A stretch of 64,000 bases of DNA from Octopus vulgaris (lineage: Eukaryota), in contig OX597826.1 of assembly GCA_951406725.2 (NCBI GenBank), positions 77,996,001 to 78,060,000 on the forward strand, given 5' to 3'. Shown piece by piece: positions 21,516 to 39,900 of this stretch (positions are counted from its first letter, which is position 1; every line of letters begins with the position of its first letter). The translations under genes and the position numbers were made by a program. The notes under the pieces were generated by a model. It did no database searches, was not told the origin of the DNA, and saw only the letters and a program-made list of their open reading frames with translations.

Positions 21516-21898
21516 AGAAAACATACACTGTTAATGATAATAAATATGTAAGAAAAACAAAAGCAATGGAAATTTTGAGTGTCTTATATTAAACACAAAC
21601 AGCAAATGGAATTGTTGATATATTCGAACAAGTACTGATTACCAAGTAGAATTTCAAATGAGAGTTTACTAATGATCGTACATGCGCTCAATCAGTGCTT
21701 CGGTCATGAATATTTTACTCCAAAAGAGGTAAATATATATCATTGCACATGCGTTACCAGAAGTCCACAATGAACGTGTACTTTTAAAAATAATATCGAA
21801 GATACACACGCACATACACACACACACACACACATATATATAAATACATATATATATATGTGTGTGTGTATATATATGTGTATATACACACACACACA

Positions 21899-21956
<58 letters not shown>

Positions 21957-22098
21957 GCAATAAAGATTCAAGTTAATTTAAATGAATTTACTTGAATATG
22001 GTACCTAACTTAGATGCACCAAAAAAAACTATACTGATTTAACAATACAGTAATGTGGGGTGATTATAGCGAGAATGAAGCAACAAGAATGGATAGGT

Positions 22099-22189
22099 TT
22101 TTAGTACAATCGTTTCATACAAGGACAGGTTTTATTAAAAGTTGCAAAAATTACAGCATATAAACGTGTCCCGTACTCATCAGCTAAAA
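22099..22189 (-). ncRNA. Type I hammerhead ribozyme (mirror copy in the left palindrome arm)
   Basis: Exact reverse complement of 22506-22596. Confidence 0.8.
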
Positions 22190-22505
22190 TACATGTGAGT
22201 TCTCTAGACATCCTAGTGGTTGAGGCTATACTCATGAAGTAATGTAGATAATTAAGTAACATAAACAGATTTCAAAAGTTCATTAAAGTTCTTTAAAGAT
22301 GATGTACAGTCTTATCACAGAATTTTAAAAAAGTCTTAATAGCATCACTATGCTATTAAGACTTTTTTAAAATTCTGTGATAAGACTGTACATCATCTTT
22401 AAAGAACTTTAATGAACTTTTGAAATCTGTTTATGTTACTTAATTATCTACATTACTTCATGAGTATAGCCTCAACCACTAGGATGTCTAGAGAACTCAC
22501 ATGTA

Positions 22506-22596
22506 TTTTAGCTGATGAGTACGGGACACGTTTATATGCTGTAATTTTTGCAACTTTTAATAAAACCTGTCCTTGTATGAAACGATTGTACTAAAA
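22506..22596 (+). ncRNA. Type I hammerhead ribozyme
   Basis: Stem I TTTTAG/CTAAAA (6 bp), core CTGATGA (22512-18), long stem II GTACGGGACA..TGTCC(T)TGTAT, GAAA (22579-82), stem III AC-GATT-GT, cleavage triplet GUA ending at 22590. Confidence 0.8.
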
Positions 22597-22654
22597 ACCT
22601 ATCCATTCTTGTTGCTTCATTCTCGCGTATATATATATATATATATATATATAT

Positions 22655-22810
22655 ACGAGAGGGTTCTTTCAGTTTCCGTCTACCAAACCCGCTCACAAGG
22701 CTTTGGTCAGCCCGAAGCTATAAGTAGAAAACACTTGTACAAAGGGGTAAACAGTGGAATTAAACCTGGAATCATGTGTTCGGGAGCAAATTCCTTACCA
22801 CACAGCCACC
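22655..22810 (-). mobile_element. tRNA-derived SINE, family B
   Basis: TTCTTTCAGTTTCCGTCTACCAAA.CC.CTCACAAGGCTTTGGTC..TTACCACACAGCCAC. Confidence 0.8.
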
Positions 22811-38670: not shown

Positions 38671-39562
38671 CCGAAATAGCACAGAGGACTATTCACGATT
38701 TGTAAGGTTGAGTGAGAGCTGAAAGCCAGTATTAACAGTCCTGCCTCTTGTAAGCAAATTTGCAGAAACTACCGAGGAGACCAACGAAAAAGTAACCTTC
38801 TTGAGAAACTTTTAAGTTGGGCCAAAAAAAGAATCTATTGCTCCACCAGCATCATGTAAATCGATTTCTTTGGAACCAAATGTCAACAAGTGCGTGATCC
38901 TTGTACGCAATCAACAGCACCTGGTAAACTAAAAACTCAGAAATGATTGATGGACAAATTTCTAGACATATGCAACTCAGCAGTGCAAATCGCTGACTGG
39001 AAAGGAACTGTCGAATCGGAATTAAATGCAACGGATTATACTAAGAAATAAACAAGCAATAAGTTAATAGAATAAAGCGTTATGGTGATGTGGCGTATAT
39101 CTAGAGGCATAGGGACATGTTAAATGCTTTGAGACAATCTCTTAAAATGTCTTACATAAGAAGTACTCAGCTGAAATTTGATCGAATGGCAATTGACCAC
39201 AAATGTGTGGAATGGAGATTTAAATCTCTGGTGGATCTTGTAATAAACAAACAACTTTACTGGGTGCCACAACGAAAGGATATAGAGTACAGGTGATGAA
39301 AGAAGTACTTCAAACAGTTTCTCTTAATTTGGGGATTATGGAAATAATATAAGATAGCTCAGACAGATCTGAAACACTGCGATTACGAAAAGGAGGAGCA
39401 CTTTCCATGTTTATATAGATAGGAGAAAATGGCCAGAAAGCGGAAGGAATATGATAAAGCCTGATAGTTATTGAGCAGCAGTGTGGATAATGCTGTAGTT
39501 AACGGACGTGAAAGAATGCATATACTCTAAGAGGGACTATAATCGTCCGAAAAGTGCACATT

Positions 39563-39609
39563 TTAATACGGTTGTCAGTTTCGGCAATTCCCGTTGCTTC
39601 ATCAGTTAA
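39563..39609 (-). ncRNA. Type I hammerhead motif
   Basis: ttaa-CTGATGA-a-gcaa(cgggaa)ttgc-c-GAAA-C(tgacaacc)G-TA-ttaa; intact core, 4-bp stem I. Confidence 0.65.
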
Positions 39610-39900
39610 GCCCTCTCGATTGTTCAGCTCTTTCCTGACTCGCTTTGCCATTAGTATTTATATTTTCGTCATGATTGGATGATTTAGCGATTCGCTAATG
39701 TGTATATATAAACCGCAATTTAGGTTTTCCTTTGAAAATACAAGCATTTAGTCGCTAATCATCGGTGAAAGACGAACGCACATACACACACATGTAGGCT
39801 CATATATTTAATAAACTCAAGAGACATTGTTATTCATGTGCTTAAATATATTTGTGTTTGTATGTATAAATTTATGAATATGATATATATATATCACCAT

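Follow-up and report, generated by a model that had tools for sequence, protein, structure and literature searches.

The insert between the two parts of a (TA)n microsatellite in the octopus window (the whole 64,000-nt stretch of DNA analysed here) is likely a dead head-to-head stub of a Penelope-like element (PLE), and its two arms were probably made as two cDNAs, primed from both nicked (TA)n strands and copied from one RNA. Judged from its sequence, the insert is the very young, 5'-truncated end of a Hydra-type PLE.

Structure of the insert and its flanks

In the assembly, the two arms (22,069-22,345 and 22,350-22,626) are 277 nt each, 100% complementary and 4 nt apart, as the preliminary description had it (a 558-bp fold-back with mismatch-free 277-bp arms and a 4-nt loop). 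It had also let the left arm run about 115 bp further than the right and had placed both outer ends in (TA)n, and both statements hold. The one-sided left extension, or tail, measures 116 bp (21,953-22,068, minus strand) and spans the interval from the long (L) to the short (S) end of the element. The outer neighbours are the left part of the target, a (TA)n-rich microsatellite (21,834-21,952), and its right part, (TA)14 (22,628-22,655). (TA)n is found at nearly all ends of the family, and no target-site duplication of this insert is readable inside it. The L-ended arm (22,069-22,348, minus strand, with the cDNA orientation on the plus strand) is the 3' region of the element and matches the parent until 22,348, and the S-ended arm (22,350-22,626, plus strand) is the exact reverse complement of 22,069-22,345. 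The 4-nt centre (22,346-22,349), which occurs once in the genome, consists of three parent bases of the L arm and one untemplated T. At the S end, an additional G (22,627, plus strand) is absent from the parent and from the left arm, and this is the commonest S-end form of the family.

The insert has no open reading frame, and each of its strands consists of one sense ribozyme with its antisense upstream; no convincing coding frame was found near the insert. Because an inverted copy with a one-sided tail is published PLE architecture, the locus is an ordinary one, a piece of common debris. The insert is most likely inert. At 22,066-22,068, the left arm lacks one T of the S site that is present in the parent, in the other aligned copies and in the independent runs, and either a mutation or faulty polishing under the influence of the mirror arm could account for this. 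The right flank (22,656-22,810) is a very high-copy SINE-like repeat with a depth of about 1e6, and the insert sits in the TA run next to this repeat.

The parent element and its clade

The genome-wide search with one arm that the preliminary description had suggested led to the parent PLE. The left arm has 1,722 first-look genomic candidates, of which the 40 scored are 99-100% identical, and about 1,000 ribozyme-bearing arms are present in the genome. The insert is thereby one among hundreds of short stubs with this head-to-head form, a pattern already known. Two earlier claims are supported: the insertion is very young, its arms departing from the family majority by 0 substitutions at the 262 sites compared, and it is the 5'-truncated end of a PLE, whose parent, with a reverse transcriptase (RT) and GIY-YIG frame, is present in the genome. 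The parent unit, taken from the longer loci, is 4,646 bp (4.65 kb), with an open frame of 970 aa in L039 and of about 980 aa in several loci. Its protein carries RWK at 55, ADKT at 141 and YRDD at 372, followed by the linker motif CKCRIKSKC at 831, VIY..YIG at 850 and, in the nuclease end, CQLC at 928 and CVH at 958. Only one Cys lies within VIY..YIG, and the cysteine pair of the CCHH motif is missing there. In L039 (L039:5106-8018), RT and nuclease are separated by an Asn-rich stretch of about 330 aa that keeps the frame open, in a linker that is 29% Asn; Asn-rich inserts are described for rotifer Penelope elements in the available part of PMC3846280.

The family has the single ORF with RT and C-terminal GIY-YIG of an EN+ PLE, together with a partial tandem (pLTR), an inverted 5'-truncated copy and a one-sided tail. 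Pfam profiles matched pieces of the protein below their cut-offs (RVT_1, E 0.006; GIY-YIG, E 0.004), and neither Pfam on the entire 970-aa ORF nor a protein search among longer proteins returned anything; the database relatives are 34-44% identical. In the part of PMC8557442 used here, the Hydra clade is characterized by RWK, DKT, a CxCx5C linker, the lack of a cysteine pair between GIY and YIG, a C-terminal CxxC and CxH, a hammerhead and insertion in (TA)n. The octopus family shows RWK, DKT, CxCx5C, CxxC and CxH, lacks the CCHH cysteine pair, inserts in (TA)n and carries a canonical hammerhead. Its 4,646-bp unit exceeds the usual Hydra length of less than 3 kb, a tendency and not a diagnostic according to the same excerpt (PMC8557442). 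Based on this motif match and a by-eye comparison, we assign the family to the Hydra clade. Assignment to Nematis or Neptune, which have a CX2-5CxxC linker and a CCHH motif, was rejected, as the protein has no CX2-5CxxC and no cysteine pair between GIY and YIG. The octopus hammerhead differs from the one listed for Hydra-1_Obim, indicating a separate family; by sequence, then, the family appears to be new and the clade already known.

A second young family (L135-L144, L154) is about 65% identical in RT and has its own hammerhead and many open frames. The L and S ends of the first family recur in it, at L141, L143 and L154, with a tail of about 80 nt.

Long and short ends of the family

The family was sampled through a 30-mer of the ribozyme: the first 100 of 919 matches, on contig 1 and part of contig 2, gave 60 loci, all of which were read. 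Two-armed loci make up 42 of the 60, in a sample that somewhat favours them and misses very short arms owing to the exact 30-mer selection (41 were classed directly and L090 was completed by the overlapping L091). Each of the 42 has one L and one S end, and none has two L or two S ends. Of the remaining loci, nine have an S end only and eight an L end only. In L066, an S arm is accompanied by a lone 42-nt fold-back and no L end. The tail is about 115 nt long in the family. A templated G follows the L end in 34 of 49 cases. The S ends of the pairs read CTCGCG joined to TA in 26 of 41, CTCG joined to TA in 6, a template-like form in 5 and other forms in 4, and the form with the extra G is also found at 4 of the 11 S ends outside such pairs.

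The arms end within 30 nt of each other in 18 of the 39 simple pairs. By permutation, the mean number of such symmetric pairs is 2.8 and the maximum 10, and 18 or more were reached in 0 of 20,000 permutations, showing that the arm lengths are coupled. In the lopsided pairs (more than 30 nt apart), the L arm is the longer in 13 of 39 and the S arm in 8 of 39, the latter by up to 3.07 kb.

The preliminary description had proposed that a single cDNA folded back on itself. In its general form, one L-primed cDNA would fold back, self-prime the second strand and join the target at S, with lopsided copies arising by later one-sided deletion. We consider this unlikely. It yields symmetry naturally, and the excess of symmetric pairs, the lone fold-back of L066, the variants common to both arms of single loci and centres that may have been remodelled (L012/L013) all speak for it. 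As a general mechanism, however, it does not accommodate the S arms that exceed their partners by more than 30 nt. In six full-length loci (L175, L177, L178, L179, L182 and L185), S arms longer than the unit, or more than 4.5 kb, stand beside L arms of 65-527 nt, which would need a kilobase-scale loss of one arm everywhere, and the lopsided pairs are not more diverged than the others. Lone S copies (9 of 60) also count against it, as does the G at most S ends (26 of 41, including this locus): it cannot be templated from the first arm, and an S end copied from the L arm would instead show a natural TTATA join. What may survive of the fold-back idea is a local snap-back at the centre, in keeping with the symmetric pairs and with L066.

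It is rather improbable that the pairs arose by self-priming on antisense RNA, or from an extrachromosomal hairpin DNA cut at L and S by the endonuclease and then integrated. Parts of two papers lean this way, with PMC3846280 explaining the palindromes at junctions by self-priming from an antisense template and PMC8557442 attributing the tail to an intermediate that the endonuclease resolves, and the S site does lie in an AT-rich stretch. Such an origin leaves unexplained the 21 of 39 pairs that are lopsided, in both directions, and the recurrent extra G, and the RT starts seen in vitro on sense RNA match the ends of the tail (PMC11167929, in part).

Variants shared by the two arms

Variants were compared in 61 two-armed loci (39 sampled and 22 best-match loci, two of which duplicate one insertion). 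The two arms of a locus differ at 43 of 19,848 sites (0.22%), compared with 1.3% between loci, and the differences are similar in symmetric (0.23%), L-longer (0.19%) and S-longer (0.15%) pairs. At diagnostic subfamily sites, the arms agree in 459 of 462 cases, where random pairing would be expected to give 126.5 discordant ones. In addition, 26 variants are private to one locus and common to both of its arms; their pattern is as compatible with one arm having been copied from the other, or with gene conversion, as it is with one RNA.

These data bear on whether two different RNAs were copied, one for each nicked strand, and the cDNAs then joined, which we regard as very improbable. Both ends do resemble independent first-strand starts, the self-complementary stem III of the ribozyme suggests RNA dimers, and variants would be shared by RNAs that stem from a single source locus. 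Against this, no L/L or S/S pair occurs among the 42, 459 of the 462 diagnostic sites are concordant, and the arm lengths are strongly coupled.

A fold-back artefact of reads or assembly is scarcely credible as the source of this palindrome. In its favour, no contig of four independent runs bridges the centre, and the T missing from the left arm might stem from polishing. On the other side, the unique flanks show no mirroring, the outer ends differ from each other in the family-typical manner, 42 of the 60 loci have the same layout with different centres, and contigs of the independent runs carry further joints that link the two arm orientations of the family, several with inserted letters. 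A 31-mer of run X2 that seemed to carry the centre base was discounted because it adjoins an adapter-like loose end. An A>G/T>C pair was likewise dismissed as RNA editing, since it was seen in a DNA-labelled run of a multi-copy family.

Many palindrome centres contain short templated insertions, which resemble polymerase-theta end joining. One insertion is present twice (L012 and L013, G000:C31; 98.3% identical over 3.4 kb) with different centres, one of them more symmetric, indicating that centres can change after insertion or be mis-assembled. Copying via a palindromic master was rejected, given that the pairs of arm extents in the 39 simple loci are all different and that the centre of this locus is unique.

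The hammerhead motif

A type I hammerhead pointing outward from each arm had been described, and the layout is found on both strands as a prediction from sequence. The plus copy (22,506-22,596, predicted cut after 22,590) has stem I formed by 22,506-22,511 and 22,591-22,596, the core from 22,512, a long stem II, GAAA and the stem III sequence CGATTG. Its mirror on the minus strand (22,099-22,189) has the core at 22,183 and a predicted cut between 22,105 and 22,104. The type I core CUGANGA / GAAA / NUH with stems I to III is thus complete. The Rfam check that had been suggested, run on the window, returned 0 matches at the gathering score, and the hammerhead family is absent among 53 Rfam matches with E up to 10, a miss that is likely due to the long stem II. 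Rfam microRNA matches lie below their cut-offs and reflect the hairpin only. The support for the motif comes from sister families and not from Rfam: the hammerhead is kept in at least five of them, with stem I changed yet still paired. Furthermore, the 919 exact genomic copies of the ribozyme 30-mer, compared with 0 for the reversed control, show that the motif is not due to chance. An unrelated compact hammerhead-like motif lies elsewhere in the window (about 39,550-39,611, minus strand), outside any local inverted repeat.

Stem III is self-complementary in all sister families (CGATTG, CGATCG, CAATTG, CATATG). It fits the dimer model of PLE ribozymes, in which the hammerheads are proposed to act as dimers with a short palindromic helix III (PMC4209133, cited from part of its text). 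In free folding, the stability of the monomer ribozyme is not above that of shuffles (z -0.2 to 0.5), and enforcing stems I and II costs about 1 kcal/mol. The earlier claim that the hairpin buries the ribozyme in either direction of transcription is supported by the computed folds, with predicted energies of about -496 and -501 kcal/mol for the hairpin vs about -12 kcal/mol for the hammerhead. In this stub, the hammerhead would be a passenger, blocked by its own antisense arm.

Tandem junctions and the predicted fold of the junction RNA

The genome contains 15 exact tandem junctions in 14 loci, all of which were read. Six of the 14 are the loci described above, in which the S arm exceeds one unit and the inverted L arm measures 65-527 nt; four have an L arm longer than the unit with an inverted S arm, one has both arms longer, one is S only, and two are obscured by N gaps. 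The upstream overhangs at the junctions range from 33 to 1,341 nt, and the 15 junctions never stand head to tail in pairs on one strand. L090/L091 (G000:C2:37.617-37.628 Mb) is a 10.6-kb head-to-head insertion with both arms longer than the unit and a 981-aa frame in one arm. A circular RNA template has been proposed for PLEs and predicts more-than-unit copies (PMC4209133, in part). The more-than-unit arms, the variable overhang and the lack of a tandem array would fit a circular RNA template made by the ribozyme, and they may also come from linear read-through of L-ended partial tandems, from template jumps or from an unassembled array.

The RNA from the ribozyme cut to the start codon occurs at tandem junctions only. 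Compared with 100 shuffles, its fold has z values of -5.8 to -6.5 in two families; in a third family, z is -3.1. In the predicted fold, the L and S sites are located within unpaired linkers or next to them. A predicted long-range helix of 13 bp joins the bases just downstream of the cut to those around the AUG (L033:4875-5110, L145:8357-8592, L150:8368-8575), and it could also control translation. Across four sequences, 98% of cells pair, with two compensatory changes, in a structure derived from these same sequences, and the covariation of the domain in the four is not above that of shuffles (64 of 500 as high).

The 25-mer after the cut is carried by 1,010 arms, nine of which differ in the preceding three bases, six of these being true junctions. 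Arms extend at least 7 bases past the cut in 976 of the 1,010. In several very short copies (L156, L157, L159, L160, L162, L163, L165, L169-L171), the arm ends 0-6 nt upstream of the cut, which suggests a mild pause or microhomology hot spot. Since arm ends show this mild clustering and no pile-up at the cut, cleaved linear RNA ending there was rejected as the main template.

Probable priming from both target strands on one RNA

In the reading that we favour, the endonuclease of the element would nick both target strands, and the RT would begin at L and S, two internal sites separated by about 115 nt that lie in unpaired linkers of a domain folded from the RNA between the ribozyme cut and the start codon. 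The cDNAs from the two nicked strands would copy the same RNA, and the tail would be the stretch between the two start sites. PLE RTs are not known to have an RNase H. Both cDNAs would then stop, and their 3' ends would be joined by microhomology or a short snap-back. Ends that stop together would give a near-perfect palindrome, as at this locus, and ends that stop apart a lopsided inversion. The ribozyme would have its role in the parent RNA, where it likely acts as a dimer and may give rise to a circle of unit length.

The 4.5-kb S arm beside a 214-nt L arm, the lone S copies and the untemplatable G argue that S ends are first-strand starts like L ends, and the strict L/S pairing, the common variants and the coupled lengths argue for one RNA. 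Counting against this reading, the 18 symmetric pairs of 39 need a shared stop or a snap-back bridge, and the L066 fold-back, the 26 private common variants and the different centres of L012 and L013 are further difficulties. Sequence alone cannot separate a snap-back bridge from co-terminating ends, and the fold-back idea may thus hold in part at the centre. Because this locus is symmetric, we infer its own history from the family and from one base (22,627).

A more specific version is tentative, and we think it possible though somewhat doubtful: paired hammerheads would excise a unit-length RNA, this RNA would be circularised, a dimeric RT-nuclease would prime both DNA ends on one circle whose folded domain presents the starts 115 nt apart, and the second RT would displace the first cDNA. 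If true, it would offer one explanation for the tail, the L/S pairing, the palindromes, the lopsided inversions and the more-than-unit tandems.

The family is of value for its youth, its intact frames of about 980 aa and its hundreds of near-unmutated insertions, and its ends discriminate between published ideas on the origin of PLE inverted pLTRs and tails. If two thirds of the insertions are kilobase-scale inverted repeats, the family could contribute substantially to dsRNA and to DNA instability in this genome.

Comparison with known systems

In L1 twin priming, both target strands prime cDNA and a 5' inversion results. In L1, the two arms derive from separate stretches of the RNA that do not overlap, whereas the arms of the octopus family overlap and start at two fixed sites. 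No report of twin priming applied to PLEs was found in the open-access literature searched.

The structure itself is already known. The available parts of PMC8557442 and PMC3846280 present an inverted 5'-truncated copy, joined through a palindrome and tailed on one side only, as typical of PLEs; the preliminary description had likewise called PLE pseudo-LTRs often inverted. Pen2a_Av of Adineta vaga shares the head-to-head 5'-truncated copy, the palindromic junction and the one-sided tail. Its type of tail is 30-40 nt long, compared with about 115 nt in the octopus (PMC3846280, PMC8557442), a length that alone stands out, and the octopus insert has no readable target duplication. Antisense self-priming was proposed for Pen2a_Av (PMC3846280), whereas the octopus family data favour twin priming. 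Within the Hydra clade, the motif blocks of Hydra-1_Obim match those of the octopus family by eye (PMC8557442), and the octopus family is set apart from the clade as described there by its frame of about 970 aa, the 29% Asn linker and a 1.8-kb 3' region. The dimer hammerheads of PLEs (PMC4209133) have the short palindromic helix III in common with the octopus motif, whose helix II is about 60 nt long and whose activity is a prediction.

The closest biochemical parallel is Poseidon of Anolis carolinensis. According to the part of PMC11167929 available, both strands are nicked and extended in vitro, and reverse transcription begins at two internal positions, which mark the limits of the tail. 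Both elements have an AT-rich target and an RNA signal at the pLTR-ORF junction. In Poseidon, the hammerhead overlaps the start codon and the RT starts inside the ORF (PMC11167929), whereas both octopus starts, about 115 nt apart, lie upstream of the AUG, so that each could be mutated without a change of protein, which makes twin priming, one or two RNAs and a circular template directly testable.
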